This document shows positions 17,302 through 64,000 of a stretch of DNA of 64,000 nucleotides, piece by piece; position 1 is the first letter of the stretch, and every line of letters starts with the position of its first letter. The position numbers were made by a program, and so were the translations under genes. This DNA is from a virus (taxonomy: Duplodnaviria > Caudoviricetes), in IMG/VR virus record IMGVR_UViG_3300032030_002018. The stretch is one strand, 5' to 3'. Below the pieces are notes generated by a model. The model was given only the letters and a program-made list of their open reading frames with translations, searched no databases and was not told the DNA's origin.

Positions 17302-17964
17302 ATGAAAAAAAGAATTAGATTAACAGAGAGTGACCTGCACAGGATTGTAAATAGGTCAGTGAAAAGAGTACTACGAGAGTCACAACTTCTTACAGAACTT
17401 GACCCGAGAACATATGCAAATTATGCAAGGGGTCGTGCGGCACAGGGCAATTATAAAAAGGCTGTAGAAGGGCAAGAGTATGCTGCTCAACAGTTTAACA
17501 ATCAATATGGTTATGATAATCGAAACCTAAATGGATATGTTCAATCTGATAGCAATAACCCAAATGTCAAATATATGGGTTACGACACAGATTATTACCG
17601 TATGAGGAATGATAAGAAACCAGGTTATAGATTCAAATGGGATAGCCCTGATTATTATAAAAATCGTTATAATAATAACGTATATGCTACTGAAAGATGG
17701 CAAAGTAAAAATTACCCAGGCAGAAATGATATGGACGACCAAGAAACATTCTCAACATATAATCCTGATACAGATACAAGTAATTCCACAACATACGGTA
17801 GAATGAAATACCAAACGCAACCAAACAGACTTGTAGTATATGGTGATTATGACGGAAGACCAATTAGAAATCAAAATAACAATAGAAGTGGATTGTATGG
17901 TGATGAAGTTGCAAGACAAATGCAAACTGGTACTGGAATTTATAAAAATGGCAAATGGCAATAA
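17302..17964 (+). CDS. LTESDL-leader family protein (putative head-packaged protein), Tyr/Asn-rich payload
   Basis: Starts MKKRIRLTESDLHRIVNRSVKRVLRE; own late-type motif (17272) and terminator. Confidence 0.8.
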   Translation: MKKRIRLTESDLHRIVNRSVKRVLRESQLLTELDPRTYANYARGRAAQGNYKKAVEGQEYAAQQFNNQYGYDNRNLNGYVQSDSNNPNVKYMGYDTDYYRMRNDKKPGYRFKWDSPDYYKNRYNNNVYATERWQSKNYPGRNDMDDQETFSTYNPDTDTSNSTTYGRMKYQTQPNRLVVYGDYDGRPIRNQNNNRSGLYGDEVARQMQTGTGIYKNGKWQ

Positions 17965-17965
17965 C

Positions 17966-17999
17966 AAATAACCCAGACTAATTAAAGTCTGGGTTATTT
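17966..17999. terminator. Bidirectional intrinsic terminator
   Basis: 14-bp perfect stem aaataacccagact/agtctgggttattt between convergent genes. Confidence 0.85.
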
Positions 18000-18019
18000 A
18001 TTTGTAAATTAAGCAAATA

Positions 18020-18475
18020 TTAACGAAACATTTTATCTGTTATATCAATCATTTGTCCGTCTTTAATCTCGTATAACCTTTGGTTTGTTGTTTCTTTATT
18101 TATTGGTCCTCGTTCTTCAATATATCTCCCAAGTTTTATATAGTCAAAATTACTCTTTTCAACCTCACTTGCAAGATATTCTCTTCCTGAATACCATCCA
18201 ACCTTTATTCTGCTGTATTTTTCCTTGATGTATTTAGCAAGAATATTTATTTCTTCAGGATTTCTGTCTCCACCCATAAAGCAAAAACAGGTAATCCCAT
18301 TGTTACTTTTTATTAATGTATCAATTGATTCTTCATTTAGTTCCTCCCCAATATCATCCCATAAATGCTTTGAGTGGCATCCTTTACATCTAATAGGGCA
18401 GTTGCTGATATTGACAGCAAGAGTGATTTCATTTGGTATTTCAGAGAAAACCACCTCATTTTCAACAAATTTCAT
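18020..18475 (-). CDS. nrdG: Anaerobic ribonucleotide reductase activase (radical SAM)
   Basis: CPIRCKGCHS (CxxxCxxC); adjacent to nrdD. Confidence 0.93.
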   Translation of the reverse strand: MKFVENEVVFSEIPNEITLAVNISNCPIRCKGCHSKHLWDDIGEELNEESIDTLIKSNNGITCFCFMGGDRNPEEINILAKYIKEKYSRIKVGWYSGREYLASEVEKSNFDYIKLGRYIEERGPINKETTNQRLYEIKDGQMIDITDKMFR

Positions 18476-18477
18476 AA

Positions 18478-24223: not shown

Positions 24224-24225
24224 CT

Positions 24226-25598: not shown

Positions 25599-26102
25599 TC
25601 ACCATCCAATTCTAATATGACTATCGGCTTGTTTAAACCTATTTATTAATTCATTGTATTGAGATGGAAATAATGCTTGAAATTTTTCTAATGATAGTTC
25701 CCTTTCATCATATTCTTTGTTGAATTCTCCTTCTATTTCATACCATCTTATAAAACCGCCATTTTTAAAGTCTGAATATTCACGCAAAGAAACCAAATAA
25801 ATATAAACATCGTTGTTACCATCCACGCTTACATTATAAACCTGATACATTTTATTACCAAACGGAACTATTATACAATGTGTGCTATATTTGGGTATTT
25901 TTCCATTAGCCTCATCGTTATTCAGTATATCTTTAACAAATGGATAATGACGTTCTAAATCTCTTAAATCTGGAGAATTGTGTAAAACTTGAATTATTAT
26001 ATTTTTTCCGTAAGCATCACTGTTTTCTTTCAAAATTCTTTTCACTGACCTGTTCACAATTCTGTGAAGGTCTGATTCTGTTAGTCTAATTCTCCTTTTC
26101 AT
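25599..26102 (-). CDS. LTESDL-leader family protein, globular-looking payload
   Basis: Starts MKRRIRLTESDLHRIVNRSVKRILKE. Confidence 0.8.
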   Translation of the reverse strand: MKRRIRLTESDLHRIVNRSVKRILKENSDAYGKNIIIQVLHNSPDLRDLERHYPFVKDILNNDEANGKIPKYSTHCIIVPFGNKMYQVYNVSVDGNNDVYIYLVSLREYSDFKNGGFIRWYEIEGEFNKEYDERELSLEKFQALFPSQYNELINRFKQADSHIRIGW

Positions 26103-26376: not shown

Positions 26377-26859
26377 CTAAGCATCGAATACCCTGTTAAG
26401 ACTCCATTTTCTATGTAATGGTCTTTTATCAGCAGCATCTAATGCTCTATTAAATGATTTGTCAGTTTTAGGCTGCTGCGATGTTTGTTTATCAAAGTCT
26501 TCAAACTCATCATTATCAAATCCGTCAGCACCTCTTACAAACCAATCGCTTGGTCGCATCCATTTACCGCTATCATCTGAATATTCACGCCCTTTAGGTT
26601 CATCAAGTCTATATTGATAATTTGTTTCGGCTCTTGGGTCTCTATGTGGGATAGACCTTAAATACTGTTTGGTATCAGAAGCAAGTCCACGACCAAGACC
26701 TCTTACATCAGCATATGAACGGTTTTTTGCACGTCCAAATTCATCATAATCTATAATTCCGCTATCATCTATATCCCATACTTCATTCAAGGTTCTTTTC
26801 ACTGATTCATTCACAATTCTATGAAGGTCTGATTCTGTTAATCTAATTCTCTTTTTCAT
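26377..26859 (-). CDS. LTESDL-leader family protein, charged payload
   Basis: Starts MKKRIRLTESDLHRIVNESVKRTLNE. Confidence 0.8.
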   Translation of the reverse strand: MKKRIRLTESDLHRIVNESVKRTLNEVWDIDDSGIIDYDEFGRAKNRSYADVRGLGRGLASDTKQYLRSIPHRDPRAETNYQYRLDEPKGREYSDDSGKWMRPSDWFVRGADGFDNDEFEDFDKQTSQQPKTDKSFNRALDAADKRPLHRKWSLNRVFDA

Positions 26860-30010: not shown

Positions 30011-30608
30011 AATTTTCTCTAATTTTTTTCTTATAGCATAATCTGCATAATGGTTGGTAAACATCGTCTCCTCCAATCATAAACTGATTACCTTCCTTTA
30101 TTATATTGCCATCCTTATCAAACCTTGCATTAACTGTTGCCTTTCTACCACATTTACAACTTGATTTCACCTCAAATATATCGTCTGCAATCTCAAATAA
30201 TCTTTTAGATGCTTCAAATAGTTTAGATTTGAAATCAGTTCTAAGCCCATAACATATAACATCCGTATCCATAAGGTCAACAACATCTGATAATTGGTCA
30301 ACCTGTTCTGGTGTCAGGAATTGGCATTCGTCAACCAATACCCATTTGTTTGGCGGTTGTTGATTAGCCATTCTAACATCGTTATATGTCTTAACAGCCT
30401 CGTAAATATTGACATCAGAAGCAACACTTACACATTCCATTTTCAATCCAGCCCTTGATTTGACATATCTCTTTCCGTCTCTGTTATCAACTCCTGGTTT
30501 AAGTAACATAAATGGTATTCCCTTTTCCTTGAAACTATGGGCAGTTGCCAAAAGATTCAAACTCTTGGCACTCCCCATAGCACCGAAATAAAACCTTAAT
30601 TTAGCCAT
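29994..30608 (-). CDS. tdk: Thymidine kinase
   Basis: GAMGSAKS, VDECQF, YGLRTDF, zinc CxC...CRLC. Confidence 0.95.
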   Translation of the reverse strand: MAKLRFYFGAMGSAKSLNLLATAHSFKEKGIPFMLLKPGVDNRDGKRYVKSRAGLKMECVSVASDVNIYEAVKTYNDVRMANQQPPNKWVLVDECQFLTPEQVDQLSDVVDLMDTDVICYGLRTDFKSKLFEASKRLFEIADDIFEVKSSCKCGRKATVNARFDKDGNIIKEGNQFMIGGDDVYQPLCRLCYKKKIRENYEASY

Positions 30609-31570
30609 TAAAAAGGTAATTCTTCTTCATTATTCTCTTCATCAGAGTTTATTTGTTCAACCCACTTCGTGTAATCAGTGGTTGACTGTGTTAAATTGTC
30701 TTGTATCTCTCTCTCTTTCCTTTCAGCCTCAATCTTATTGAAACTATCCCTGTCAACGTATTTGCCTGATGTCTTGTCGAAAACAGGTATTCCGCCTTCA
30801 ACGATTATTGCCATATATTCATATGGCTTCACAGTGAATACATCAGTCCATTTCTTCTCGTCATTAACCCACGACAAAGCTTGTTCATAATCATCAGAAA
30901 GAGGTGTGTTCCTTCCTTTATCTGTAACTTGAACTGTCGTCTTGTTATTGGAGTCTTTTGACAAAGTTATAACAAGGTCTTTTCCTTCATTAAGGTCAAA
31001 TATATTTTCCTCGTGACCGTCTTCCTTACCTTCGTCATATCTTGTCTTGAATAGGTTCATAATCTTGTCGTACACACCGTCCTTCTTCTTTGAATGACTG
31101 AATACCCAGAACTTAACTCCGTCTTCCTCGTGTCCTCTCTCTATACATCTGACAATCCAAGATTCCTTTGCTCTGTTAGCAAATTCAATATCTCCGTATT
31201 TTTTCTTTTCAGATTCAGAAGATGCTTCATTGCGTAACTTCCTAGCTTGTTCAGATGTCTCACAGAATGGGCATTGGTGTTTATTTTCAATGTCATTCTT
31301 CTCTGGACATATGAATGTGCGCCAACCGCTATTGGTCAGTTCTTTATTAACCTTTACAGTGTGTGTGTGGATTTTATAAAATGGTGAGCCACCTTCAGGG
31401 AAAAACGGCAATAACCTTATGGTTATTTTCTTTGTGGTCTCATCAGGTCCAAGCCTTGCTTGAAGATAATTTTTTGGATTAAATTCTGTTCTCTTCTTTG
31501 GTGCTAAAGTCTCTTGTTCATTTTGGCTGATAACAGCATCTACATCAATGTTAACATTTAAATTATTCAT
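30608..31570 (-). CDS. Single-stranded DNA-binding protein, T4 gp32-like
   Basis: IRLLP..SPF..H..C..CPFC zinc site; acidic tail ending EELPF. Confidence 0.85.
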   Translation of the reverse strand: MNNLNVNIDVDAVISQNEQETLAPKKRTEFNPKNYLQARLGPDETTKKITIRLLPFFPEGGSPFYKIHTHTVKVNKELTNSGWRTFICPEKNDIENKHQCPFCETSEQARKLRNEASSESEKKKYGDIEFANRAKESWIVRCIERGHEEDGVKFWVFSHSKKKDGVYDKIMNLFKTRYDEGKEDGHEENIFDLNEGKDLVITLSKDSNNKTTVQVTDKGRNTPLSDDYEQALSWVNDEKKWTDVFTVKPYEYMAIIVEGGIPVFDKTSGKYVDRDSFNKIEAERKEREIQDNLTQSTTDYTKWVEQINSDEENNEEELPF

Positions 31571-31727: not shown

Positions 31728-33134
31728 TTACCATTCATCATCATAGTCTGGTTGTCTTACAATACCGTCATCTATTCTTCTTTCTATTTCATTTGTTAGT
31801 TGTTCTCTTCCGTAGATGTCGAACCATCTTTCAAGTTCATCACTTATTGGTATCTGTCTTCCATATCCACTATGCCCACGCATAAGAAAGTCTAATTCTA
31901 TTTCTCCGTTTGCATAAGTTCCTCGTAATGTGTACCAATTGTTGTCACATCTTGCCTCAAAATCGTAATATCCATCTGGGTTTTCTGATATATCTGTGAT
32001 ATGCCAATCACTGAAATCTATCTGACCGCCACCAAGATTCATTTCACTTATAATTCTTCTAACTGAATTATTTACAATTCTATGCAAGTCACTTTCTGTA
32101 AGTCTTACTTTTCTCATTGTGTTTCTATTTTTGTTTTCCTGTCTTATTAAATTGTGATATTGAGCCATTGTCATTTCGTCTCCATCTGACTTGGTGAGTT
32201 TTTGACCCCATACCTTATCCCTGTTCCTTCTGAAATCTTTCAATGCTCTCCATTTCTCGTAAGGGCTTTGAAGATGTAGTGGTCTATCGTCATTGTTTGT
32301 ACTATCGCTTTCATTCTCTTCAGAATCATAGTCATTACGTCCAGTAACATCTTTTGTTACTTTTGGTTCTTCTCCGTGAATAAATCCTCTGACTGTCCAA
32401 GAAAGAACACCATCCTCACCGGAGTCGAAAGAAGTGTCACGAAGATATGTGTAGTTCATCAATGTCATAACAGGAATGCCTGAAGTCTTACTTAAATCAG
32501 TAATAATTCGCCTCATTTCGCCTGGTGATAGATTCTCATCATTATACATACATATAATGTAATCCTCAGTCCATATTCTTCCATTATACTGTGTTTTATG
32601 ATAAAACCAGTCATTGAATTTTCTAGATGAGAACTGAAAATCAGAATCGCTGTTTATTAATGAGTAAAAATCATTTGAGTAAAGTCCTGTGTAATTATGG
32701 ATAATGTCATCATAAGCGTCTTTATTGTTGTCAACAATTTCATTTATCTGACCATACGTAATACCACCATTAGCTTGTCTGAACTTAATGATTTGTTTGA
32801 ACGCATCGTAATCATCAAAGTCACCGGAATAATTATCATAATAAAAAGTCGCAACATCTTCATTATAATCTTCTTTGTTATTGTCATATTCCTCCAATAA
32901 CCATTCAAGTTCATTCGCACGCTCATATTGAAAATCGTCCAATAAACTGTTAACACATTCTGCGTAAAATCTTGATGAAGCCTCTTTATGTGTTGTTTGC
33001 TCTTTGCCATAGCACATCTTATACTCTTCCCTGTCGTCAAGAGTAGCCCAATATCCAAATGGATGGGCACCGTAATAGTCCCACATTAATTCGATATCAT
33101 TCCATTCAACCAAATCCGGTGTTGCTGTTAACAT
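31728..33134 (-). CDS. Acidic protein with an internal LTESDL leader (fusion, or nested start at 32117)
   Basis: Internal MRKVRLTESDLHRIVNNSVRRIISE begins at 32117. Confidence 0.7.
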   Translation of the reverse strand: MLTATPDLVEWNDIELMWDYYGAHPFGYWATLDDREEYKMCYGKEQTTHKEASSRFYAECVNSLLDDFQYERANELEWLLEEYDNNKEDYNEDVATFYYDNYSGDFDDYDAFKQIIKFRQANGGITYGQINEIVDNNKDAYDDIIHNYTGLYSNDFYSLINSDSDFQFSSRKFNDWFYHKTQYNGRIWTEDYIICMYNDENLSPGEMRRIITDLSKTSGIPVMTLMNYTYLRDTSFDSGEDGVLSWTVRGFIHGEEPKVTKDVTGRNDYDSEENESDSTNNDDRPLHLQSPYEKWRALKDFRRNRDKVWGQKLTKSDGDEMTMAQYHNLIRQENKNRNTMRKVRLTESDLHRIVNNSVRRIISEMNLGGGQIDFSDWHITDISENPDGYYDFEARCDNNWYTLRGTYANGEIELDFLMRGHSGYGRQIPISDELERWFDIYGREQLTNEIERRIDDGIVRQPDYDDEW

Positions 33135-34544: not shown

Positions 34545-37500
34545 TCACTTGTGTCTTAATAAGAAGTAAGTTAATGGATATTGTTTAAAAGTTTCGCCAC
34601 TTTTAGCAGTTCTTGTTACTGCGCCGTATGGTGACACGTGCTTTTGTAATGTACCTGCACACCATTGTTTATATTTAGAACCACAGTATCCACAACTGTG
34701 ATATCCACTACCAGGAACAGAACTTCTTTTATCCCATCCTACAGGCCACATAACGCATATATCACCTGTTTGTGGAGTGACTGAAAAATTAAAATCTCTT
34801 ACCACTGACGCAGGTGTAGTTCCACTAGCCGCAGCAACCCATTCTCCTGTTGATAAAAGACTCTGCATTAATTGCCAAGGATACGTTACTCTCGTGTATT
34901 TCTGACCGCTTTTATCCAAAGCGACCATAACCCAATGCGTACATCTACCGTCATATCCGTGATTTGAATCAAGTATAAGTTGTTTTTCGAACAGTCCTAC
35001 TTTCCACCCTCCAATCGTTGCGTTTTCATCAATTCCTTCAATTGAGCCGCCTTTGCCAAGTTCAGTTCCATATCCATAGTCTGAATTTCCAATCAAAGAG
35101 TTGCAATCTTTGATTTCAATTCCGTTGCTGTCAATCTTTGTCTTTATAAATGATTCATTTCCACCGCTTTTAAGATATTTTGTGATGCATTTCCTATATC
35201 CGTCGTGTACTTCCTTTGAATCAAAACAAGTACCGTCAGCCTTATATACACCAATTATTCTTGACGGTGGAGTTTTCTCAACAACCTTTACTTGTATGTG
35301 CTCAGGATTTTCCTTTGCTCCGTTATCATCTTTTATAACCCATTTAAGTTCCTCAACATACCGTATATAGTCACTATTAAGACAAACGTCAAAAACACCT
35401 ATAAGTTTTGACTTGTCATCACAGGTGAATCTTATTGTATTATTCGCAATATTCTTTTCATCAATTCCAATATTAGCACCTATACCTGAACTCTGACAGG
35501 TTTGGTTGACAGCCTTTGCAAAAGCTTTAGCGAGTTTGTCTTTTTCCTTGTCCTTATCATTCCTTACTTCTGGTTCTAGTTGCCAAAAATGGTCTATCGA
35601 ACCATCATTTACATAGATGTGATACTTATTTTGAAATAGCCACTCACCACCCCACCAGAACGCTTGGTTTGGATTTTCTTTTGCAGCACCTTTACATACT
35701 TTCTGCTTTGCAAGAACAGGGTCCCATCCACACATAGTACAATAGTTTGTCATTTTTGACAACATATCATAAGTCAACGCAACAGGTGAAGATTTTTTCC
35801 CTGTGTGATTATACTTGCTTACTATCTCGACAGGATAAGAAACTTCAGTCATCTGTCCAATCAAAGAAGCTGGGCCATTGAAAAAAACTTCCTTAATATC
35901 TTCCCAATATTTGTATTTTTTATAATTACCAGCACGGAATGGTTTATCTAGATAATCCTCATTATACCATCCCATTTTCTTGTTCTTGAAAATACCGTGT
36001 GAATATTTTTTGTTAGGGTGATGCCAATAATTGCAAATAAAAGCTGCTTGTATTTTATTTCCAATTCTTCCTGAATATTCACCGCCAGTTTCTCGATATA
36101 CAATATCACATAACGTTTCCCATAGTGGCTGATTCTCAAATGCGCTTTCAATTGAAGCGTCTTTCCACTTATCTACATTCCATCCGTATTTATTCCACAC
36201 ATCAATCGTTCTGCTCATCAAGTCTTCCTGTGGAATTGAACCACCCTTTCCACCTCCGAACAATGGATATACCTTATAAGGGCAGTCATTGTCATAGTTA
36301 GCCAAGGCATTCTTTCTCGCTTCCATATCATTCCTTCCTGAAGATTGGTTAAGTAATCCTTTAGTAACCCAATTCTTCACCTTTCTATTCTGTACATTAG
36401 CCATTCTAACACCTTTGAATGTAGTTGTCATATTTCCTGGTTGTATGCTGTGCGTTACATTCATAATCTGATATGTACCCCTGAACAACGGAACATTCGT
36501 AAGGCAGAAATACATAAGTGGCTGTATCCAAGCACAACCCATCATCTTTATTGTGCAAGTATATGAGTTGTTTGAATAAACAGTGTAAAGGTCTTGTCCA
36601 ACAAATGACATCCTCTTGTTCTCAGATTCCTTGTTGTCATTGTTCATAGAAGCAATCATATACTGTGCCTTGATAGCCTGGTCTGTAGCGATAGGCGAAT
36701 CCATAGAAACGTCAATATCAGAGAAAAAACTTTGGTATTGCTTTCCATAAGACACACCGAACGCAGGAATATGATAGTCAGTTTCATTTCCTCCTTGCAA
36801 TGGTATTGGCAAATGACTTCCTTCAGGCGTTATCATAAATGAATCACCCTTATAGGCGTTCCCATCGCCAAGGTCAAGGTGTGATGAAGCCTCATATGTG
36901 TAATTGAATATGAAATTAGGATGATTTGCAGGCTTTTTCATATCCAAATATGATATCGGCTTGAATATATTCTTTAAATTCTCCTGTTTTGACAAATCTA
37001 TGAAATTGTTTATGCAGAAAAACAAGAACTTATTGACATTGCATATATCTCCAAACATTGAAAGCAATGAATACTGTCTTGATGTCTGTGCTTCAATTAT
37101 CTTATCCGCAAAATCGCCAATATTTATCAATATGCTCTGTCCAATCTTGTGATAAAATGTATCAATGAATACAAATACCGGATTATCACCCTCAAAATAG
37201 TATTTAAGAGTGAAATTATCCCCAACATTATCGCCGGCAATCCATCTATCATATATAAGCTTTATGTATCTGTAAATACCTACCCTTATATCATCATTTG
37301 TCATTGTTGCATTGTCCTTGGCAAGTTTTGTACCGCTTGTCTCACCTTTATTGTCTGTGGTATTGCTTGAAACACCATATTGAATCTTCAATTCATCAAC
37401 AAACCCATCAATGAAATTGTTTCCGTTTGATTGTGAAATTGATATTACACCTTTTCTGTCTTTTTCAGCGTATGCTGTTGTTTTTAATACAGCATATCGT

Positions 37501-41594: not shown

Positions 41595-41598
41595 AATG

Positions 41599-41919
41599 TT
41601 AATCTAGTCCGTACAATTTTATATATAAGTCAATGTCGTCGTTGTATTTCTGAATAGTGGAATCCAACGGAAACGGTATCCTTAATAACGCTCCGTTTGG
41701 AATACAGAACTCCAAAGAGCCGTATTCAGGGTTTGCCTGCATTATCAACCAATCATAATTAGCATTGCCATAATACTGATACGACAATAAATCAAGCCTT
41801 GTCCTACCAGCTTCATATGTATGGTAATAATCAGTACCCTTCTTTGGTATTGCTATAAATGGAACTTTCTTAACCTCGTTTCCGTTCCTGAATTTTCTAT
41901 ATCTGTCGTATGTTGCCAT
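41599..41919 (-). CDS. Baseplate LysM-like / tail X (gp53-like) protein
   Basis: RLDLLSYQYYGNANYDWLIMQANP...LRIP. Confidence 0.8.
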   Translation of the reverse strand: MATYDRYRKFRNGNEVKKVPFIAIPKKGTDYYHTYEAGRTRLDLLSYQYYGNANYDWLIMQANPEYGSLEFCIPNGALLRIPFPLDSTIQKYNDDIDLYIKLYGLD

Positions 41920-45671: not shown

Positions 45672-45704
45672 TTATCAGACAAAAAGTATATAATTGCCGT
45701 TATT

Positions 45705-48700
45705 TTATGTTCTGTTGTACATCATACTTGTGTTATATGACATACTCTCCTTATTCATCTTACCACCAGTTCCCTGTGTATTAAGTCTTTCCTTAACCAT
45801 CTCAACTATCTGTCTTCTGAACTCAGCGTTGTTCATCAACTCATTGAAATCTATTCCAACTCCTCCATTAGCACCTTCCAACCTTATTGTACCGCTTATG
45901 TTGACATTTATATCAGATACTGTGGTGTTTCCACCTCCATAAATCATTGTCTCACGATATTGTGAAACATTCGAAGGAACACTTCCTATTGGTTCTGAAG
46001 GCTTTACAGTTTCAGTGTAAAGACTTGATATGTTGTCGTTATTTAACTTCCTTACAATAATCTCATTGAACTTGCTTTCATTGGTTTCCTTTATTGTGTC
46101 ACTAACCATACCATTAGCATTAGGAGTTTCAATGCCAGCAATCTTATTCACAGCGAACAATATCTTCGATAATATTGAATCCTTATCCTCAACATTGTTA
46201 TCACCAAACACAAAGTTTCCAACTGAATCAAGTATGCTGGATATTGGATTCTTTACATTGCCTCCTTCTTTCTTTCCGAACAATGAACTTGATATAAGTC
46301 CTGCAACGCCAAGCATTCCTGACTTACCACCACTCTTAAGTAGTTCAAATAACGATTTCTGTTCTGCCTTGTTGAGAATCATCTCGCCACTGTTAGCCAT
46401 AACGTGTACCTTATCACCAGTGTATGAATCACCAGGAATCATAGCACCAATTGAAGACATAACGCTACTTGCGGTATTCTCCATCATACCCTCAATGGTA
46501 TCACTTCCACCCTTGCTTACCAAAAGTCCTTTTTCCGCCTTTTCAGGTATTATTCCACCATTTTCCTCACCGAAGAAATTGGAAATCTTGTCATATACCC
46601 ATTTATTGGCATCTGCGATAGGTTTTCCAACAATAGGTATTTTCTCAAAATTGTTCGACATATTGTCAACATATTCCTCAATCATACCCTTCTCAGTACC
46701 ATCATCACGTTTTCCTTCCTCTCTATTCCATTTGGTTATCAAAAGGTCGTGAATTCCAATAGTTGCCATAGCAGCCTTTTCCATCAACGCAGGGTCTGTA
46801 ATGTCGGTATAACCAATCTTACCAGTCTCAAAATCAGACTGTTGCTTTAACGCTGCTCTTTCTTCTTTTGATGTTCTCTTTCCAAGGATGTAATTAACAA
46901 CATCGCTGTCACGATATTGATTTAAGGCTTCATAAATAGCGCCAGCTGTAGCACCAATAGTAGTTCCAACTCCAGGAATTACACTTCCATAAGCACCCCA
47001 TTCCGCGGCACGAGTACCAATATTAAGTAACTTATTAATATGACCACCTTCTTCTATAACACCGCCCGCTACAAGCCCTTGGTTAAGCAAATCGCCGGCC
47101 ATTGAGTATAAAGAACCCTTCATAGCCCCTTTAAGGACTGTTCCGGCTACTTTTCCTGCCATTTGTCCGACTGTTTTGCCAGCAATAGAAGAAACTGCCT
47201 TGCTTGTTACTGACGCGGTTGTTTTTTCACCTGCTAAATATGCAGCCGTCATAACTGTATTACCAGCCTTACTTGCTATACTTTCCTCTTCTTCTTGTAT
47301 TTCTTCCTGCTTTTCTTCTGTACGCCTTACTCCTGCTAATGCTGAAAGTAATTCATTCCTTTCAATAGCAAGTTTAACTAACTCGCATATACTACATTCG
47401 CCTTCACTAACATTTGTATTAGCACTTGAAATATTTGAAGTAGGCTTTTCTTCTTGAGATTGTTTTGAAGATAAAAGTTGACTACCAATCATTAATGCAG
47501 CCATAGCAATCATACCCTTACCACCGCCGCCTTTGAATTTAAATCCGGAAGAACCTGGTGGTGTTACTCTTCCTCTTGCAGGAGTTGGTCTTCTATAGCG
47601 AACTGTCATACCAGTTCCACCATTTCCTTTTCTGACTCTAATATTCCGCGTTCTAGGTTTAGCAGTCCCGGTTGATGATGCTGATGAACCACCTGCTGAT
47701 GATACTGTTGAACCACCTGCTGATGATGCTGATGAACCACCTGCTGATGATGCTGATGAACCGCCTGCTGATGGTGCTTGTGTACTTGTTGCTTTACCTT
47801 TAAACCAATTCTTTGGATTTAATTTTTGTGACGCTTTGTATGTCCAACCTCCCTTTGCATAATTTCTAGCGAAACTTTTACGTATAGCACCATTATGTCC
47901 GAAAAGTTTTCTACCTATCATAGGTCCAACGACAGCAGTACCTAGGCTTGCAATACCAATAACCCAACTTGGTAAAGTGGATACAAGACTTCCTAATGGT
48001 TTTAAAATTAAATTCTTAAACCATTGAAATGGTGTACTTAACCAATCTGCTGATGCTGCTTTTACTCCATCAATAAAGCCATCCTTTAATTCTGCTGCGC
48101 TTGCTGTCTTTTTAGCTTGTTCTTTTAATTGGTCTGATATTGGACCAGTAAGATGTTCCCTAATTGCACGAATATCTTTAAACGCATTCTCCTCATTTAT
48201 GTCGAGTGCTTGATTTTGTGCTATTTCTTCAGCTGTGACTGCTGTTATGGCTTTTTTCTCAATTTCACCATTTTCTTTGATGATATTGATAACATTCTGT
48301 TTGGTTTCAGAGTCAAAATACGACTTATTCTTGATATAAGCCTCTTCAATTGCTCTTTTGTCCTTATCTTTACTTAACTGATTTCTCTTACTAAGTTCAG
48401 CATCAATTATCTTCCTTCTGCTTTCCTGTTTTGCTATATTGGTAAGTTCTTGCGCTGATATACCCATAGCATCAGCAGCAGCCTTTATCCTATGCATATC
48501 AACAGGATTGATTTTCATCTCACCCGTATTCTTATCCATAGTAGCCAAACCACCAACAGCCTTAACAACATCATCAAACAACGCTTCTGGGTCTGACCAA
48601 GCCTTATACATCATACCCATTGGATTACTTGCAACTGACGCGAAACCACCGCCAAGCATCTGTAATCCTGCCGCATTTTTCAAAGAATCTTCAATGGTGT

Positions 48701-50174
48701 CAAACTTATCAGTTACACCCATTACGGCATCCATTGATGTTTTTAACTCCTGAGTCTTTAAAACCATACGAGTTAATCCATCAACACCATTCCTAAAGTT
48801 ATATTTGTTAAGTTTATCAAGATTTTTTGCAATAGCCTCAGTTGATTTACCAGCGTGTAAACCTAATGCCTTGGCACGCTGCTGTGCCATAAACATTATA
48901 TCGCCAGTATCAGTTATTGAAACTCCAACCTTATCAAGACCAACGAGCATATTATTGACGGTTTCTTTGCCAAACATCTTTGACATCGCCGTCATATACT
49001 CGACATTCTCATCAGTGAAATACGCAGCCCTTTCTGTGGCTTCCATATAAGACTGCTTCATATCTTGTATGGCTTCGTTTGTCGTGCCATAAACACCAGC
49101 AAGTTCCTTTGTATTAACTAACTGTTGAGATGTCAGATTTTTAGCTTGTTCCGCTGACATTCCAGCGGTTCTTGCCATTTTGTATATTTTATCTTCTGTT
49201 TTTTCCCAATAAGAATAAGTGTTCTTTAACCATCTCCAAGCGTCACGAAGAGCATAAACTATTTCGTCATACTTTTTGCCAGCAGCGTAAACTTTGTCTT
49301 TGATTTTTTCTTCTAAAACAAGTTGTTCCTTGGTTTTATCTACAATTTCTTGTTTGTTTTGTAATACTGCGTCTAATTGATTTGTTGTGTCGGTTAATGC
49401 TGTCTCTCCTCCTAATTTATTAAACTCGTCACCAAGTTTTTTTGCTGCTTCTTTAGCTGTAGTAGTATTTTGAACTGTAACTCCAACCTTATCACCCCAA
49501 TTTTTAATTAATTCTTCACTTCTTGAAATTTCTTCTGAAAGTTTGTTATGCTGTTCTTCAAGTTCTTTTTTTCTATCTGCTAACGCATCTACTTTTTCTT
49601 TTAAAATGCCTTCTTGTATTAATAAATTGTTTCTTTCTTTTTCTAAATCACCAGTATATCCTCTGTTACTTTTTTTCGTGTCTATTTCTTGTCGGAGCCT
49701 TTCTATTTCTTCACGATATTTCTCTAATTCGTCATTTTTTGATTTTATTTCGTCAGAAATTGATTTTTCTTTATTCTCAATACCTCTTAGATTCCATCTT
49801 CTTGAAATATTGTTTCTATATTCATTTATAACGTTATCTCTTCCTGTTTTATATGTTTCAAGTTCTTCTTTTTTTTCCTTTAATGACGCAATATCGGCTT
49901 CTGCTTGTTTTAATTTTTCAAGCAAATCACGTAGTTGTTTGTTTACCTTAGTTAACTCATATATATCACCTTCTTCTCTGTCGTTTTGTTTTTCGTATTG
50001 CTTCAAAAAATCAGCCACATTATTGAAATGTGTTGTAGTATTTTTAAGTGAGTCCTTAACATCTTCAAGCATATCTTTAAATGCTTTTAACTCTTTTTCT
50101 GAAAAGATGCCGTTACGCTGTCCTCTCTTCAAATACTCCTCTAATAATATTATGTCTTCTGAACGTGTTATCAT
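45705..50174 (-). CDS. Tail tape measure protein
   Basis: 1489 aa, long coiled coil, Ala/Gly-rich TM-like segments, GDKV...NSGEMILN motif; downstream of chaperone-like genes. Confidence 0.8.
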   Translation of the reverse strand: MITRSEDIILLEEYLKRGQRNGIFSEKELKAFKDMLEDVKDSLKNTTTHFNNVADFLKQYEKQNDREEGDIYELTKVNKQLRDLLEKLKQAEADIASLKEKKEELETYKTGRDNVINEYRNNISRRWNLRGIENKEKSISDEIKSKNDELEKYREEIERLRQEIDTKKSNRGYTGDLEKERNNLLIQEGILKEKVDALADRKKELEEQHNKLSEEISRSEELIKNWGDKVGVTVQNTTTAKEAAKKLGDEFNKLGGETALTDTTNQLDAVLQNKQEIVDKTKEQLVLEEKIKDKVYAAGKKYDEIVYALRDAWRWLKNTYSYWEKTEDKIYKMARTAGMSAEQAKNLTSQQLVNTKELAGVYGTTNEAIQDMKQSYMEATERAAYFTDENVEYMTAMSKMFGKETVNNMLVGLDKVGVSITDTGDIMFMAQQRAKALGLHAGKSTEAIAKNLDKLNKYNFRNGVDGLTRMVLKTQELKTSMDAVMGVTDKFDTIEDSLKNAAGLQMLGGGFASVASNPMGMMYKAWSDPEALFDDVVKAVGGLATMDKNTGEMKINPVDMHRIKAAADAMGISAQELTNIAKQESRRKIIDAELSKRNQLSKDKDKRAIEEAYIKNKSYFDSETKQNVINIIKENGEIEKKAITAVTAEEIAQNQALDINEENAFKDIRAIREHLTGPISDQLKEQAKKTASAAELKDGFIDGVKAASADWLSTPFQWFKNLILKPLGSLVSTLPSWVIGIASLGTAVVGPMIGRKLFGHNGAIRKSFARNYAKGGWTYKASQKLNPKNWFKGKATSTQAPSAGGSSASSAGGSSASSAGGSTVSSAGGSSASSTGTAKPRTRNIRVRKGNGGTGMTVRYRRPTPARGRVTPPGSSGFKFKGGGGKGMIAMAALMIGSQLLSSKQSQEEKPTSNISSANTNVSEGECSICELVKLAIERNELLSALAGVRRTEEKQEEIQEEEESIASKAGNTVMTAAYLAGEKTTASVTSKAVSSIAGKTVGQMAGKVAGTVLKGAMKGSLYSMAGDLLNQGLVAGGVIEEGGHINKLLNIGTRAAEWGAYGSVIPGVGTTIGATAGAIYEALNQYRDSDVVNYILGKRTSKEERAALKQQSDFETGKIGYTDITDPALMEKAAMATIGIHDLLITKWNREEGKRDDGTEKGMIEEYVDNMSNNFEKIPIVGKPIADANKWVYDKISNFFGEENGGIIPEKAEKGLLVSKGGSDTIEGMMENTASSVMSSIGAMIPGDSYTGDKVHVMANSGEMILNKAEQKSLFELLKSGGKSGMLGVAGLISSSLFGKKEGGNVKNPISSILDSVGNFVFGDNNVEDKDSILSKILFAVNKIAGIETPNANGMVSDTIKETNESKFNEIIVRKLNNDNISSLYTETVKPSEPIGSVPSNVSQYRETMIYGGGNTTVSDINVNISGTIRLEGANGGVGIDFNELMNNAEFRRQIVEMVKERLNTQGTGGKMNKESMSYNTSMMYNRT
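47673..47773. repeat. 24-bp coding tandem repeat (4 copies; AGGSSASS) in tape measure gene
   Basis: Unit tgatgatgctgatgaaccacctgc at 47673, 47697, 47721, 47745. Confidence 0.9.
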
Positions 50175-55165: not shown

Positions 55166-58100
55166 TTACTGTTGGTCAAAAAACAATCCCTCAGGCGTGA
55201 GGACGAAATCAATTGTCACATATTCAAGAGCGTTATATGGCTTGAAGAATATCTTAGCTGGCAATTCCCTTCTATCTCTTGCCTCGATTGTGTCATCCAC
55301 CTCAATCTTGTAATCAGAGATACCTCTGTTACTTCTGATGTTGTCAAGTATTGGTGTCACAGCTGTCAAGAACTGATTCTTTGTTACACTGTCATTAGGT
55401 TCGAAGATTAGACTCCTACAAGCAATTGCAACAAGTTTTCTCATTCTGAGGAGAAGACGTCTAACTGCAATTCTATTCAACTGTGTATCAGCGAATTGAA
55501 GGTTCTTCTGTCCCCAAATCTTAACACCGTCAGTTGCAAATGTCTTAACAGGGTTGATTCTTCCTTCATAAAGAACATCTTCGTCTGCAAGACGTGTGAT
55601 ATATTTTGCTCTAACACATTCTACATCACCTCTTGAAAGACCTGCTGGTGCGAACCAAGGATAAGTTGTATTATCTGTTTGAGCGAAGTTTCTAACAGCG
55701 TCCTTTGTTACTGGTAGATAGATGTATTGACTGTTGTCAACATCGAAATACTTAACCCAAGGATAATAAGTACAAGTGTAATTTGAATTAAGTTCAGAAT
55801 CCTCAAGGTTGTATACTGCATCTTCTGCTGTAAACATATCATCAACAAAGTCTTCTGCTCCACTTGGTTTATCAGGTGTTGTAACAACATAGATGGAGTC
55901 TGCACGTTCGTTTTCAACCATATCTATAACTTCTTCTACAAGGAGTTTGTTGTTTACATAATCAATACCTGGTGTTGCAAGTATATTGATATCTGTTGCC
56001 TCAGGATTAGCGAATTGTCTGATTGCTGAAAGATATGCATACCAGTCAGAAGTGATACCATTCTGATTCAAACCAAGAACGTCTGGGTTCTTTATCTTAT
56101 TGAATGAATAACCTTCGCCACTTGCCTTGTTGTAAGAACCTCTATACTTTGACATCTTAAAGTCGTCAGTGTTACTCCTCTGATTCCTGTATACATCCCA
56201 TCCGTCAAATCCACCATAGAAGTAAACGGTGAACTTTCTGAGGTTAACATACTCATAAATGCTACCTTGCATCATTGCCTCATTACCAATTACTGGTATT
56301 TCAGTAAGCAATGTTGTAGTGTTGTTTGGAGAAACAGCGTCAAACTTATATCCAAGAACGCCGTCAACAGATACTGTTGGATATTTCTTATCTTGTTTAT
56401 CATTCTTATATCCACTTATATTCAGTCTTGAATCAAGGTGGAAACCATTTGAAGTATTCTCAGGTACATCAATGTAAGTGAGATTTCCATTGAAAGTAAA
56501 CAAGTCAATGTCAACACCAGTTATATCTGAAAGACCGAAATACTGTTTTCTGTTCTTGATTTCGTCATCAAAATTAAGGTTGTATTTGATTATTGGGTTG
56601 GTGATACCTGAATAAGAATCGTCAACAACCTGCAAACCATCGTACTGATGTATTGGATAACCAAGGAAACCAGCTGGTATTGAACTTTCAGTAACACCAT
56701 TCTCATTAACCTCTACTGTAATATACTTAGACTTGCTCTCATACATACCATCATAAGAACCAATCTTGAATGCGATATAATTGTTAGTTCCTGGCACAAG
56801 AGAACACTTTGAGAATTTCTCCAATGGGATGATATTGAAATCAATGTCATCAATTCTTCTCACAACAACATCGAACAATCCTTCATCTGGTAATATGTTC
56901 TCAATTGATATCTTGATTTCCTTATTAGCGTTATCGCCATCAGATATTGTGTGGAATCTGAACAACTTGTTAAGTTCAATCTTATCGAAGTCTCCTTTCA
57001 AGTTTGAAACAATCCAAGGTGTAGACGCATAACGATATGCTGACTTATAATTATTCAGGTTACAGTTAACAAAACCAATAACATAATCGTCTGGTAATGA
57101 TGGCTCTTCTACTATTGGAACAAGTCTATAATACAGTCCATCAGACTCATTCTTTACGATAACCATTTGGTTGTAAGGGTCTTTAGTTTCCCAATAGTTT
57201 TTACCATATTGCAAATGGTCAATAAGTGTTATAGGACAAGCTGAAACTGGGGTTGGGAGACCATCTTTATAATATCTATAAAAATACTCTCTTTTACCGT
57301 CTTCTGTTGTATATTGAACAACTGTATATATTTGTCCAATCTCAACACTTTCAACAACCAATTCTTTTGTTTCACCAGATGTTACAGGGGTGTTAGTTTC
57401 GTAATTGTATGGATGACAAGTAAACTTAATGCCATCCTTTATACTATCCTCTGTTGCAAGGAATCTCTGTCCGATATTCCTTCTTGAAAGTGCTGTCTCA
57501 GGTTCAGTCATAAGTCCTGTGATTGGTTCAAGTCCACAATAATCGCTTTCATAGTAAACCTGATAGAAAGTCAGTTCTGGATTAATCGCATTAACGTGTG
57601 TTGTTCCGCTATTTGCAATGCATTGATATAAAGCAACATCATAAAGTTTCTCAACATAAACAGGAGCATCACCATCCTGTGGGTTAGTACCAAGAACATT
57701 CAAAATAAAGTCCTTATCATTAGGATTAAGGGATACTGGATACTCAAAATAACCCGGAAGATTTTTAAAATCTTCTGATGTAGGGTCGGTACAAGCTGAT
57801 TGTATTCCTGTTACACCAATAACCTTAAACTTACCCCAATTGTTAATACTAACATTAAAATCACCTTCTTCGTTAACAAATGAAGCGTCTTCACACTCAT
57901 TACCTGTTGAGTAAAGTGGGTTATATGGTGCTAATGCCAACGCCCCACCGTTATACATCTTTGGTTTTTGACAAGCATCATCTCCCTGTTTTACCTCACC
58001 AACATCATATACAAGACTATCGTAAACATCGTTAGGACATTCACAACTACCGTCATTCAAAGTGAATTTCCTATATGGATAGTACTTGCCTCTTGAACGT

Positions 58101-58492
58101 AAAACACACACAACCATATCCGTGTTACCTTCAGGAGTTGTTTTTTCAAACTTTGCTGTCACAACCCAAGCTGGACCTGCATTATAACCACAAAGACCAA
58201 GAACTCTGACAACCTCCAATTGCTTAGATTCAGTCAGATAAGACTTTGCGATGTAAGGCAACTCGTATTTTGGGTAAAGAGTACCCTTGTATTTTTCGGT
58301 GCTTGTACCTCCAAACATAGATGTGAATTCTCTCCAATTCTCAATATGCATAGGCTGAAAAGCCGGACCCTTGATTGTCTCACCAACAACACCAAGTGTA
58401 GTGATACCAAGACTCTTTACAGCATATGTCATATCAATCTCCCTTGAATAAACACCCGGGGATACGTGAACACCTCTTGCGTTATCTGCCAT
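55166..58492 (-). CDS. Tail sheath protein (T4 gp18-like)
   Basis: VSPGVYSREID N-terminus; PWFAPAG..RG, INPV, IWGQKNLQ, LNRIAVRRLL, FEPND. Confidence 0.95.
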   Translation of the reverse strand: MADNARGVHVSPGVYSREIDMTYAVKSLGITTLGVVGETIKGPAFQPMHIENWREFTSMFGGTSTEKYKGTLYPKYELPYIAKSYLTESKQLEVVRVLGLCGYNAGPAWVVTAKFEKTTPEGNTDMVVCVLRSRGKYYPYRKFTLNDGSCECPNDVYDSLVYDVGEVKQGDDACQKPKMYNGGALALAPYNPLYSTGNECEDASFVNEEGDFNVSINNWGKFKVIGVTGIQSACTDPTSEDFKNLPGYFEYPVSLNPNDKDFILNVLGTNPQDGDAPVYVEKLYDVALYQCIANSGTTHVNAINPELTFYQVYYESDYCGLEPITGLMTEPETALSRRNIGQRFLATEDSIKDGIKFTCHPYNYETNTPVTSGETKELVVESVEIGQIYTVVQYTTEDGKREYFYRYYKDGLPTPVSACPITLIDHLQYGKNYWETKDPYNQMVIVKNESDGLYYRLVPIVEEPSLPDDYVIGFVNCNLNNYKSAYRYASTPWIVSNLKGDFDKIELNKLFRFHTISDGDNANKEIKISIENILPDEGLFDVVVRRIDDIDFNIIPLEKFSKCSLVPGTNNYIAFKIGSYDGMYESKSKYITVEVNENGVTESSIPAGFLGYPIHQYDGLQVVDDSYSGITNPIIKYNLNFDDEIKNRKQYFGLSDITGVDIDLFTFNGNLTYIDVPENTSNGFHLDSRLNISGYKNDKQDKKYPTVSVDGVLGYKFDAVSPNNTTTLLTEIPVIGNEAMMQGSIYEYVNLRKFTVYFYGGFDGWDVYRNQRSNTDDFKMSKYRGSYNKASGEGYSFNKIKNPDVLGLNQNGITSDWYAYLSAIRQFANPEATDINILATPGIDYVNNKLLVEEVIDMVENERADSIYVVTTPDKPSGAEDFVDDMFTAEDAVYNLEDSELNSNYTCTYYPWVKYFDVDNSQYIYLPVTKDAVRNFAQTDNTTYPWFAPAGLSRGDVECVRAKYITRLADEDVLYEGRINPVKTFATDGVKIWGQKNLQFADTQLNRIAVRRLLLRMRKLVAIACRSLIFEPNDSVTKNQFLTAVTPILDNIRSNRGISDYKIEVDDTIEARDRRELPAKIFFKPYNALEYVTIDFVLTPEGLFFDQQ

Positions 58493-58623
58493 AATATTTA
58501 TCTGTTTTTAAAATTATTATTTTCAAAAAATTATTTTATTATAAATACAACCAAATTTCCGTAAATACCATAAAAATCAAAAAATAAAACAATTTTTTTC
58601 ACATTTCAACCACCATTTTTCGT

Positions 58624-58650
58624 TTAGTTTAATAATTATTATTAAACTAA
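58624..58650. promoter_or_regulatory. 27-bp palindrome (13-1-13) upstream of a leader-family gene; copy at 63928-63954
   Basis: TTAGTTTAATAAT-t-ATTATTAAACTAA. Confidence 0.75.
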
Positions 58651-58660
58651 TGAAATTATT

Positions 58661-59140
58661 ATGAGAAAAAATAGAATTAAACTAACAGAATCACATCTGA
58701 GAAGAATAGTATTGGAATCTGTGAGAAGAGTACTGATGGAAGGAGAATATGACGACGAAATTTTCGACAATGTTCATAAATTCCCTGAATATGATATACA
58801 CCATTCGCTAAAATCCGACATAAATAGGCTCAAAGATTCTTATGATGATAATCTTGACGGTATTGGAAGGACAGTCCACGGAAGTTTTATTAACGATGAG
58901 GGTGATGAGGATTATGATTATGTTGATGAATACTATCCATCTACGCCTGAAGCTAAATCATATTATGACTATGCTAACAGGGTTGGAAATAGAAGTAGTA
59001 GAAGAAAAGAAGATATGGATGCGGATTTTAGAGAATTGGACAGAATTCGTGCGGATAAAGCTTACAATGACAGATTAGAAAGAGAAAAAGTAAGACGTGG
59101 TGAATATTTCGACCCAACATATCAACGTCATATAAACTAA
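58661..59140 (+). CDS. LTESDL-leader family protein, Asp/Tyr-rich payload
   Basis: Starts MRKNRIKLTESHLRRIVLESVRRVLME; terminator hairpin at ~59165-59193. Confidence 0.78.
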   Translation: MRKNRIKLTESHLRRIVLESVRRVLMEGEYDDEIFDNVHKFPEYDIHHSLKSDINRLKDSYDDNLDGIGRTVHGSFINDEGDEDYDYVDEYYPSTPEAKSYYDYANRVGNRSSRRKEDMDADFRELDRIRADKAYNDRLEREKVRRGEYFDPTYQRHIN

Positions 59141-62233: not shown

Positions 62234-62578
62234 TTAATAATCAGCATCGTCTTCATCATAATCTCCGTCATTATATCCGGCGTTCATCAGTTCGTCGTAC
62301 AATGTCTCAAGATTTTGGTCTATTGTCATATCTGGGTCAACTTCTATTTCAACACCCATACAGGACATTGTGCCTGTATTTGGGTCATATGTAATATCTC
62401 CATATTCCCATTCACCTTCAGGATTCTTCATTTCAAAACCGTTAAGAAGTCCTTGACTTGAACGTTTGTCAATCATATCATTCCAATCATCATCAAAAGA
62501 TTCTTTTATAACTCTTCTTACCGATTTATTAACGATTCTTCTTATATCGTTCTCATTTAACCTTATTTTTCTTCTCAT
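62234..62578 (-). CDS. LTESDL-leader family protein (divergent leader), acidic payload
   Basis: Starts MRRKIRLNENDIRRIVNKSVRRVIKE. Confidence 0.75.
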   Translation of the reverse strand: MRRKIRLNENDIRRIVNKSVRRVIKESFDDDWNDMIDKRSSQGLLNGFEMKNPEGEWEYGDITYDPNTGTMSCMGVEIEVDPDMTIDQNLETLYDELMNAGYNDGDYDEDDADY

Positions 62579-62592
62579 ATTTTTTTATTTAA

Positions 62593-63333
62593 TCAAAAAT
62601 TATCTTCATCGTAATATTCATCATCGTAATCTTCGTCTTCATACTCATCCTCGTTGAGTATAGCGTCTGCTGTCTTATCCATAATGTCCTCAAAGACATC
62701 ATTAAGTCTCATACCTTCAAAACCTCTTTTATATCCATTGAACAATATATTATCGGAAACGCCTCGATAACAGTCCAATTGTTCGTCAAACCACACCTCT
62801 CCAAATTCGTCATCGTTAAAATAAACTGTATAACCTTCTGTAGAATTGTGGAATTCAGCAATATCTGGGTCTTCAACCATTGATAAGTCATATATATTCA
62901 ATCCGGCTTCTTCCCATTCTTCTTTCTCATCGCCTTCACCTTGTGAAGGGTCATAGAATATATGACCGCTTGCATCTTCTTTCAATATTCGGTTTACTGA
63001 ATTACGTATGATATTATGAATATCACTTTCAGTTAAAATTACTTTTCTCATATTATTATTGTTACTATTTTTATTTTCAGACAATTTTTCAATGTTTCTA
63101 ACAGCATCTATTATTTTATCCTTATTATTATCCAATAAATACTTAACCTGATTAATATTATACAACGAAATATTCGGTTTTCCGAAATATTCAGTTGTAA
63201 TAGGTTTAATTCCAAGATTTTGAAGCACCATATGTATATGATAAGGTGATATATCAACACCAAGTAATTTCTTGAACTGTTTTCTAAAATTACCAGCAGG
63301 CGCGTACATTTTATTTAATGTGTATCTATCCAT
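62593..63333 (-). CDS. Protein with an internal LTESDL leader (fusion, or nested start at 63051)
   Basis: Internal MRKVILTESDIHNIIRNSVNRILKE; acidic tail. Confidence 0.7.
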   Translation of the reverse strand: MDRYTLNKMYAPAGNFRKQFKKLLGVDISPYHIHMVLQNLGIKPITTEYFGKPNISLYNINQVKYLLDNNKDKIIDAVRNIEKLSENKNSNNNNMRKVILTESDIHNIIRNSVNRILKEDASGHIFYDPSQGEGDEKEEWEEAGLNIYDLSMVEDPDIAEFHNSTEGYTVYFNDDEFGEVWFDEQLDCYRGVSDNILFNGYKRGFEGMRLNDVFEDIMDKTADAILNEDEYEDEDYDDEYYDEDNF

Positions 63334-63335
63334 AA

Positions 63336-63878
63336 TTATGCTTTAAATTCAGATGTATCAACGGGTGCGCAGTTTATCGTTCTGTATAAAGGTGCTGTGC
63401 CAAACAACGTATGCGCATTGTCATAATAATTTCTTCCGTCATTTGTGACAGTAAAGAATTCCATATGTTCAGGCGTAACCTGTATGCCAATATAATCGCC
63501 AACTGTAATCTCAATACCAAGTTCAGTTAGAGTCTCCTGATATACACCAATTGTAAGTTTGCCTGTTTTCATATATGTACCGAGATTCTTCGTCTTGTCA
63601 TAAGACTTCAACTCTGGTTGTTCAATCTTATACACACAATGAAACTCAACAGGTGTTTTGAATACAACATCATTAACACTTTCACCATATACAGCGTCAA
63701 TATTGGTTTTTGATATGTCAACACGATACAACACAGCTGTCTGATTCATATCCTGTTCAACATAGTTCTTACCAATATCACGTTCAAACTTGAAAGAATC
63801 CTCACCATAAAACAATCTGTTTCTGTTAATCGGAACCCTCTGTATCTTATTTATGTTAAATTCAGGTGTTGATGCCAT
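63336..63878 (-). CDS. Neck/head-closure protein, T4 gp14-like
   Basis: LYRVD...DAVYGE...PVE...GDYIG pattern; late motif at 63895. Confidence 0.6.
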   Translation of the reverse strand: MASTPEFNINKIQRVPINRNRLFYGEDSFKFERDIGKNYVEQDMNQTAVLYRVDISKTNIDAVYGESVNDVVFKTPVEFHCVYKIEQPELKSYDKTKNLGTYMKTGKLTIGVYQETLTELGIEITVGDYIGIQVTPEHMEFFTVTNDGRNYYDNAHTLFGTAPLYRTINCAPVDTSEFKA

Positions 63879-63962
63879 TAATCAAAATTTTTAATATAAA
63901 TATATCGAAAATCCAATATTTTTTCGTTTAGTTTAATAATAATTATTAAACTAATGAAAATT

Positions 63963-64000
63963 ATGAGAAAAAATAGAATAAGATTAACTGAATCAGACTT
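63963..64000 (+). CDS. LTESDL-leader family protein (5' fragment; runs off window)
   Basis: ATG AGA AAA AAT AGA ATA AGA TTA ACT GAA TCA GAC = MRKNRIRLTESD, preceded by the same palindrome as 58661. Confidence 0.75.
   Translation, partial: MRKNRIRLTESD

Follow-up and report, generated by a model that had tools for sequence, protein, structure and literature searches.

A 26-residue helical module ending in L-x-E as a candidate head-loading tag on dispersed proteins of a giant rumen phage and on the passenger of an IS1595 transposon

In phage T4, a short peptide directs otherwise unrelated proteins into the head. The T4 prohead protease follows an L/I-X-E rule (PMC9026906), and the T4 internal proteins are diverse, their common part being only a capsid targeting sequence of 10 residues (PMC3012670), while C-terminal propeptides are known in T4 Alt (PMC9026906). 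Here, we analyse a peptide module of 26 residues that is carried by genes scattered over a 64,000-nucleotide stretch (the window) of the viral record IMGVR_UViG_3300032030_002018 (hereafter G000). An initial annotation of this DNA had described eight copies of the element as a 'leader' and had likened it to the T4 system; the T4 background on which it drew, namely the L/I-x-E rule and the short targeting sequence, is confirmed by the two publications above. As with the propeptides of T4 IPI, IPII, IPIII and Alt, a short common peptide ending in L/I-x-E is attached to unrelated and diverse proteins, and a gp21-family protease and a gp23-family capsid protein are also encoded by G000. The module differs from the T4 sequence in being longer and basic, with no sequence homology found to it, in its number (approximately 33 copies per genome as against three or four in T4), in payloads that are mostly acidic, not basic, and in that it also occurs internally, C-terminally, in tandem and on a transposon.

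Two further systems deserve comparison. The T4 core proteins gp67 and gp68 are small, as are the proteins encoded by module genes of related phages, which lie between the genes for portal and protease, and gp67 has an N-terminal helix that ends in L-I-E and gives way to an acidic tail. The module family is, however, far larger and dispersed over the genome, and a profile comparison with gp67 came back empty. Propeptides are also borne by inner-body and ejection proteins of the giant phages phiKZ, 201phi2-1 and SPN3US. In jumbo phages, many head proteins are processed after Glu through a protease related to gp21, and internal proteins often have paralogues (PMC9026906, PMC5694885). The module likewise ends in Glu. 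The proteases of these three phages prefer small P3 residues (S/A/G-x-E), unlike the module, and to our knowledge their propeptides contain no single hyper-conserved module and their capsid protein is not of the T4 type.

When all six frames were scanned for the motif, the seven complete copies and the truncated eighth were recovered at the coordinates and on the strands where the initial annotation had placed them, and an iterated hidden Markov model (HMM) detected no copy in positions 1-17301, so that none had been missed within the window. Run on the six-frame translation of the whole genome and on relatives, as that annotation had suggested, the HMM gave 29 strong copies and approximately 35 in total for G000, and 7-17 copies for each of the complete relatives. 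A profile search of 1.84 billion representative proteins returned 7,383 clusters at E<=0.001, of which 1,314 reach E<=1e-10. The consensus of the module is KKRIRLTESDLHRIVKESVKRILNE. Its conserved residues are encoded by up to five synonymous codons, and the pairwise identity between modules is 0.53 at third codon positions as compared with 0.76 and 0.77 at the first two; the constraint therefore acts on the peptide, in line with the protein-level conservation that had been claimed, and conservation of the module at the RNA or DNA level was rejected on this evidence. Among phages that span 21% to 38% G+C, the module is approximately 85-90% conserved.

The database searches that had also been suggested found no prior annotation of the module: neither Pfam-A nor PHROG has a family that matches over it at E<=0.001. 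No usable match came from a feature search of the ESM Atlas with the module, and a full-text search of the literature did not find the motif. Pfam and PHROG scans of seven window proteins and ten fusion proteins revealed nothing meaningful, and the same is true of Pfam domains in 148 module proteins. The payloads are indeed unrelated to one another, as the initial annotation had judged by eye, with not a single blastp pair at E<1e-3 among the 29 genomic copies.

The element is a module and not only a leader. It is N-terminal in most genomic copies; five copies are internal, each preceded in the same frame by a real N-terminal domain from which no stop codon separates it. In the window, these include the copies at 32117(-) and 63051(-), which do not mark gene starts and lie in frame inside open reading frames (ORFs) of 468 and 246 aa (Table 1). 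The start that had been assigned at 32117 is an internal ATG of the 468-aa ORF, which comprises a 339-aa N-terminal domain, an N/K-rich linker, the module and a 104-aa acidic payload; its N-terminal domain has a 25%-identical homologue in the relative G028, which ends in a degenerate module without payload. Chance in-frame upstream ORFs were rejected as an explanation, because the upstream parts form conserved families. Multiple modules are common, with 120 of 194 retrieved module-family proteins carrying two to four of them, and in two-module proteins a half-length second module again precedes variable tails. Ten of the 154 non-N-terminal modules are found at the extreme C-terminus.

In AlphaFold2 (AF2) models, the module is a lone helix behind a disordered N/K-rich linker, as would be expected of a docking peptide. 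The helix is basic and amphipathic, with an isoelectric point (pI) of approximately 11 and a hydrophobic stripe. The payloads measure 61-230 aa, with a pI of at most 5.6 in 19 of 29 and an aromatic residue content of approximately 13%. Many of them look like the acidic core proteins of T4 rather than enzymes, and no separate evidence supports the proposal that they are injected effectors.

The end of the module is shaped like a T4 cleavage site. In all 302 modules that were scored to the last position of the model, the terminal residue (P1) is E; P4 is I or V in 85% and P3 is L or I in 92%, while P2 is variable and P1' is mostly G, S, I, A or V. The (I/L)-x-E ending that had been reported for the window copies is thus borne out. 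The abrupt stop of similarity there is not absolute, as copies 1 and 8 have a short motif in common just past the cut site. The T4 record contains sites of the same shape (cuts marked by a slash): LTE/A in gp23, LRE/S in gp24, LIE/T in gp21 and LIE/G in gp67, the last ahead of its acidic tail. The invariant internal L-T-E of the module represents a second such L-x-E site. Furthermore, the capsid propeptide of the phage has kept (I/L)-x-E at residues 58-60, followed by AT, in seven orthologues in which x varies between S, Y and K, and an acidic scaffold-like protein of 516 aa possesses an N-terminal helix that ends in L-x-E right before an acidic run.

The genome in which these sites occur is that of a giant rumen phage and member of the T4 superfamily. 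The window corresponds to G000:73371-137370 of a record of 334,687 bp with 34% G+C and a CheckV completeness of 96%. The capsid protein (668 aa) matches T4 gp23 chains in the PDB with E ~1e-27, as well as 2,587 records of T4-like phages, and the protease (G000:221939-223093) is a gp21-family Peptidase_S77, scoring 38.7 bits with PF03420, above the cut-off. The other structural genes include a sheath gene, a baseplate hub-like gene and homologues of gp6, gp25, the portal and the large terminase, and a T4-type portal (Portal_T4) is present in relatives. An S77 protease was found in six of the seven complete module-bearing phages, and the long viral contigs with the module all resemble pieces of phages of approximately 300-410 kb. 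The phage record collection contains no close cultured relative of this phage, no DNA match to it and no protein match to any module protein.

In relatives, module genes are clustered next to the protease. A module gene is located 0.1-1.7 kb from the protease in G018, G015, G010, G028, G023, G005, G029 and G034, the gene order in relatives being capsid, acidic scaffold, protease, module genes, Portal_T4 and large terminase. In the first four of these, the module genes stand between portal and protease, as genes 67 and 68 of T4 do (between 20 and 21), and the payloads at this place vary by lineage. The head block of G000 has been rearranged, and the module genes at G000:227889-231196 still adjoin orthologues of that block.

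The promoters place module genes with structural genes. The comparison covered those 202 genes (16 of them module genes) whose upstream gap measured 40 nt or more. A ATATTTAT-type box precedes 11 of the 16 module genes and 31 of the 186 others (nominal Fisher p = 2e-5), while a host-type TTTG-N17-22-TAnnTTT box precedes none of the former and 57 of the latter (nominal Fisher p = 0.007). The ATATTTAT-type box is also found before the sheath, scaffold-capsid and protease genes, and the host-type box before UvrD, TyrRS, MetK, gp32 and thymidylate-synthase-like genes. These assignments are based on Pfam annotation of representatives of each promoter class, since tblastn of G000 against T4 gave 10 homologues only, too few to define gene-timing classes; PHROG annotation of the longest genes behind a ATATTTAT-type box was mostly empty. 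G000 carries two Sigma70_r2 (phage sigma-factor) genes, and no homologue of T4 gp55 was found in it.

Taking these data together, we lean towards the view that the module is a removable head-loading address tag on carrier proteins. In such a scheme, the module helix would dock onto the prohead core of a T4-superfamily jumbo phage during assembly and so bring the carrier protein in, and the gp21-type protease would cut the module off after its terminal I/V-L/I-x-E, perhaps with a second cut after the invariant internal L-T-E. Cleavage would free the variable, mostly acidic payloads within the head, where they might act as core filler in the manner of T4 gp67 and gp68, or from where they might be ejected into the host like the T4 internal proteins. 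The model accounts for the synteny and the promoter class, for the E at P1 and for the confinement of the module to T4-type jumbo phages. The analogy with a head tag was already drawn in the initial annotation; it is indirectly strengthened by the T4-type protease, capsid and portal, by the clustering on the protease side and by the structural-gene promoter box, and it falls short in that 'leader' is too narrow a term and that copies are also found in bacterial IS1595 elements.

Several observations weigh against this view. By itself, the capsid-tag model leaves the internal modules unexplained; the T4 model does not predict them, and 103 of the 154 non-N-terminal modules start without a Met. 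It is possible to read such proteins as polyprotein-like, each module being a docking-and-cutting unit. In G000 itself the nearest module genes are 5.6-6.2 kb away from the protease, and, because the related genomes share ancestry, the synteny counts as only a few independent observations. The ATATTTAT-type box is barely distinct from the -7 element of the host-type promoter and may have been co-duplicated with its genes; the Fisher test therefore overstates independence. The L-x-E ending is equally conserved in bacterial copies of the module without a nearby prohead protease, and an amphipathic helix alone could, for structural reasons, yield a hydrophobic-x-E spacing. Finally, homology between the module (26 residues) and the T4 targeting sequence (10 residues) is not detectable, the family-wide module HMM does not detect the capsid propeptide or the scaffold N-terminus, and hhalign of the module gave a probability of 0.1 with T4 gp67 and no significant result with the scaffold alignment. 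The idea that the module descends from the capsid-propeptide, scaffold or gp67 helices was dropped, as the HMM and hhalign comparisons gave no significant match.

Some of these points are what one would expect if the module were instead a general docking or oligomerisation helix that ties late phage proteins to one non-capsid partner (for example, a phage factory, a hub protein of the host or a coiled coil that assembles by itself). In that case the L-x-E would be structural and not cleaved. We regard this as a possible but rather unlikely explanation. A lone amphipathic helix with a clear hydrophobic stripe, a strong positive charge and a pI of this order would suit it, as would the placement of modules at the N-terminus, internally and at the C-terminus, with up to four per protein. 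The degree of conservation across phages of such different G+C content suggests a very conserved partner, and the bacterial copies retain the full motif with no prohead protease in the vicinity. A docking helix of this kind nevertheless leaves unexplained why all 302 modules have E at P1 when P2 is free to vary, why module genes lie beside the prohead protease in eight genomes, and why payload similarity and payload exchange break exactly after the E.

The helix models also bear on a role in DNA binding. The basic start of the module and the L-T-E-S-D-L that follows resemble, as we take it, the strand-helix start of CopG/Arc-type proteins, and weak PHROG matches over the module involve an anti-repressor family (E = 0.0013) and a DNA-binding family (E = 0.36), so that the module might be the strand and first helix of a ribbon-helix-helix element and the family a set of regulators or antitoxin-like proteins. 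We consider this highly improbable: the AF2 monomer models contain a single helix from approximately residue 10 and neither a strand nor a conserved second helix, no Pfam ribbon-helix-helix family matches, the payloads are mostly acidic, and some 33 regulators with one and the same DNA-reading head in a single genome would be implausible.

The module is also present in bacterial genomes. A scan of 185,579 species genomes identified 29 bacterial loci with the module, nearly all of them in rumen Prevotellaceae and other Bacteroidales, including Segatella bryantii DSM 11371 and Prevotella sp. MA2016. At least four loci sit in bins that also hold S77 protease contigs and are for this reason probably mis-binned phage DNA, while the remaining loci have plainly bacterial surroundings. 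The loci L029 and L030 (bin RGIG10190) and L032 and L047 (bin UBA3650) come from public bins with the labels Paludibacteraceae and Alphaproteobacteria; these bins have contigs with T4-type prohead protease genes and module genes, and mis-binned jumbo-phage DNA is probably among their contents.

In 18 loci, the module gene is adjoined by a DDE_Tnp_IS1595 transposase, which has a zinc ribbon, or by a fragment thereof. Terminal inverted repeats, GGCAATAACATAGAAGTTGAC and variants, delimit a unit of 2.5-2.7 kb that consists of a small gene, the module gene and the convergent transposase gene. The repeats are 26-36 nt long in the bacterial loci L034 and L036 and in the phage, and L034 displays an 8-bp target duplication. 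The G+C content of the element is 0.36-0.38, as opposed to 0.43-0.51 in most flanks. The phage contains one intact copy (G000:235248-237919) and a solo inverted repeat at 227814, and the transposase is found in 10 of 34 related phage contigs. The IS1595 transposon moves one module gene between phages and Prevotellaceae chromosomes, and the bacterial copies fit transposon traffic out of phages. The unit has the transposase type, the inverted repeats, the 8-bp duplication and the passenger genes of IS1595-family elements; it differs from them in carrying as passenger a module gene of phage type, behind a promoter box that is also of phage type, in occurring once per bacterial genome, and in that copies which are otherwise nearly identical have had the payload beside the transposase replaced.

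Indeed, the DNA similarity between loci is restricted to the transposase and a leader block of approximately 110 bp, and N-terminal domains that are 97-100% identical bear wholly unrelated payloads of 61-174 aa, the switch occurring exactly after L-x-E. The module marks the point of payload exchange. Such an arrangement recalls polymorphic toxins, in which a hypervariable C-terminal part comes after a conserved junction (VENN of CdiA, PxxxxDPxGL of Rhs) and closely related carriers have different tips. It might be proposed, therefore, that the module is mainly the cassette-swap junction of a polymorphic effector system, with IS1595 as its vehicle and arms-race or anti-defence proteins as its payloads. 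The exactness of the switch and the narrow extent of the DNA similarity favour this proposal, as do the half-length second module, again ahead of variable tails, and the transposition of the element as a unit with terminal inverted repeats and target duplication. We nonetheless deem it improbable. No immunity-like gene covaries with the payload, as the small upstream gene stays 91% identical when the payload changes and the transposase is located downstream; no link to any secretion system is apparent; and the free variation of synonymous codons in the module implies that DNA identity for recombination is not conserved. Unlike the toxin junctions, the module has neither an adjacent immunity gene nor a secretion apparatus, occurs in a phage and insertion-sequence setting, and is a 26-residue helix with a usually N-terminal position. 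The junction proposal and the capsid-tag reading can both hold, and the former is no substitute for the latter.

In bacteria, the gene of the element has retained the ATATTTAT-type box and never has the host-type box. A speculative extension, for which we would give rather poor chances, is that the IS1595 transposon exploits phage head-loading: with this phage late-type box ahead of it even in a bacterium, the passenger gene would be on only during infection by a jumbo phage, and its product would be loaded into heads by way of the module. If so, the phage would acquire exchangeable injected cargo, or a host-resident element would place a helpful or harmful protein in progeny virions, and payload exchange at L-x-E would represent a capsid-cargo cassette system common to phages and their hosts.

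Should the module prove to tag proteins for head loading, it would give phages of Bacteroidota their first known portable packaging signal, and one that serves by far the largest cargo repertoire of any single signal, with dozens of copies per genome and thousands of clusters in rumen metagenomes. Many phage proteins that now lack annotation could then be approached through a single shared feature, experiments could address what jumbo phages bring into cells, and foreign proteins could be packaged in such phages, as is done with the T4 targeting sequence. The transposon link is unusual in itself, as a mobile element shuttles a phage structural-type gene and its promoter box into and out of host chromosomes while swapping the payload.

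Table 1. Module (tag) genes of the window and two genes of its structural and gene-timing context (positions in the window; module positions under remarks).
Feature	Length (aa)	Position	Strand	Remarks
Tag gene 1	220	17302..17964	+	Module 17302-17379; ATATTTAT-type box ~30 nt upstream; payload basic and aromatic-rich, opening with a short motif common to copy 8
Tag gene 2	167	25599..26102	-	Module 26025-26102; ATATTTAT-type box upstream
Tag gene 3	160	26377..26859	-	Module 26782-26859; ATATTTAT-type box upstream; whole-protein close homologues in other metagenomes
gp32-like single-stranded DNA-binding protein gene		30608..31570	-	Contrast class for gene timing; headed by host-type TTTG...TAnnTTT promoter
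ORF with internal module	468	31728..33134	-	Module 32043-32117; frame open upstream, no stop
Tail sheath gene	1108	55166..58492	-	Structural context; ATATTTAT-type box in front
Tag gene 5	159	58661..59140	+	Module 58661-58741; divergent from tail sheath gene
Tag gene 6	114	62234..62578	-	Module 62501-62578; payload very acidic, net charge -23
ORF with internal module	246	62593..63333	-	97-aa N-terminal part; module 62977-63051; payload very acidic, net charge -36
Tag gene 8, start	247 (whole gene)	63954..64000	+	Cut by window end; whole gene G000:137324-138067

Tag genes 5 and 8 share a palindromic upstream element. Tag gene 5 belongs to a subfamily with its own conserved element of this kind: four members of one subfamily of module genes have, in place of the ATATTTAT-type box, an element of approximately 40 nt that is conserved and contains a perfect AT-rich palindrome, at 58620-58660 and 63920-63953 of the window and at G000 positions near 162620 and 228700. 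This element may be an operator or a separate promoter class. In another module gene of G000 (L013:9855-9875; G000:213863-213870), the ATG is one base out of frame across a run of approximately 10 A, which reflects either an assembly error or slippage-prone phase variation.

With respect to the transposon and the bacterial copies, the N-terminal domain of the transposon-borne gene (L041:5392-6000 and homologues) contains four invariant cysteines, C-x5-C-x2-C-x4-C, and an invariant SNHGT motif. Its AF2 model, which is of moderate confidence, has no fold match (Foldseek E>0.3; best VIA Z 4.8, with a root-mean-square deviation of 4.3 over 107 residues). A lone module gene of 98 aa (L021:10001-10297) lies between Peptidase_M16 and ion-channel genes on a bacterial contig, with neither a transposase nor an inverted repeat nearby.

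Within the window, three giant minus-strand ORFs (2349, 1250 and 1489 aa) at 34545-50174 stand beside the baseplate and sheath genes and have no PHROG match. Elsewhere in G000, two homing/HNH endonuclease genes directly adjoin the major capsid gene (L013:11746-13933; G000:215746-217933), and a leucine-rich-repeat (BspA-like) gene of 711 aa (L014:2192-4327; G000:223192-225327), with a paralogue at G000:138127-139347, is placed between the protease and the remaining head block in this genome only. In the relatives G037 and G026 (loci L145 and L146), only short fragments of the capsid protein are matched, in open frames that are themselves short, and the S77 protease is either absent or broken, which suggests split genes, introns or a changed genetic code. 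The protease of G000 itself (L013:17939-19093) has 384 aa, while five orthologues have 231-253 aa; the surplus of approximately 150 aa begins with Cys and looks like an intein (Hint) insertion, and long forms of the protease are also found in G034 (380 aa) and G023 (607 aa).

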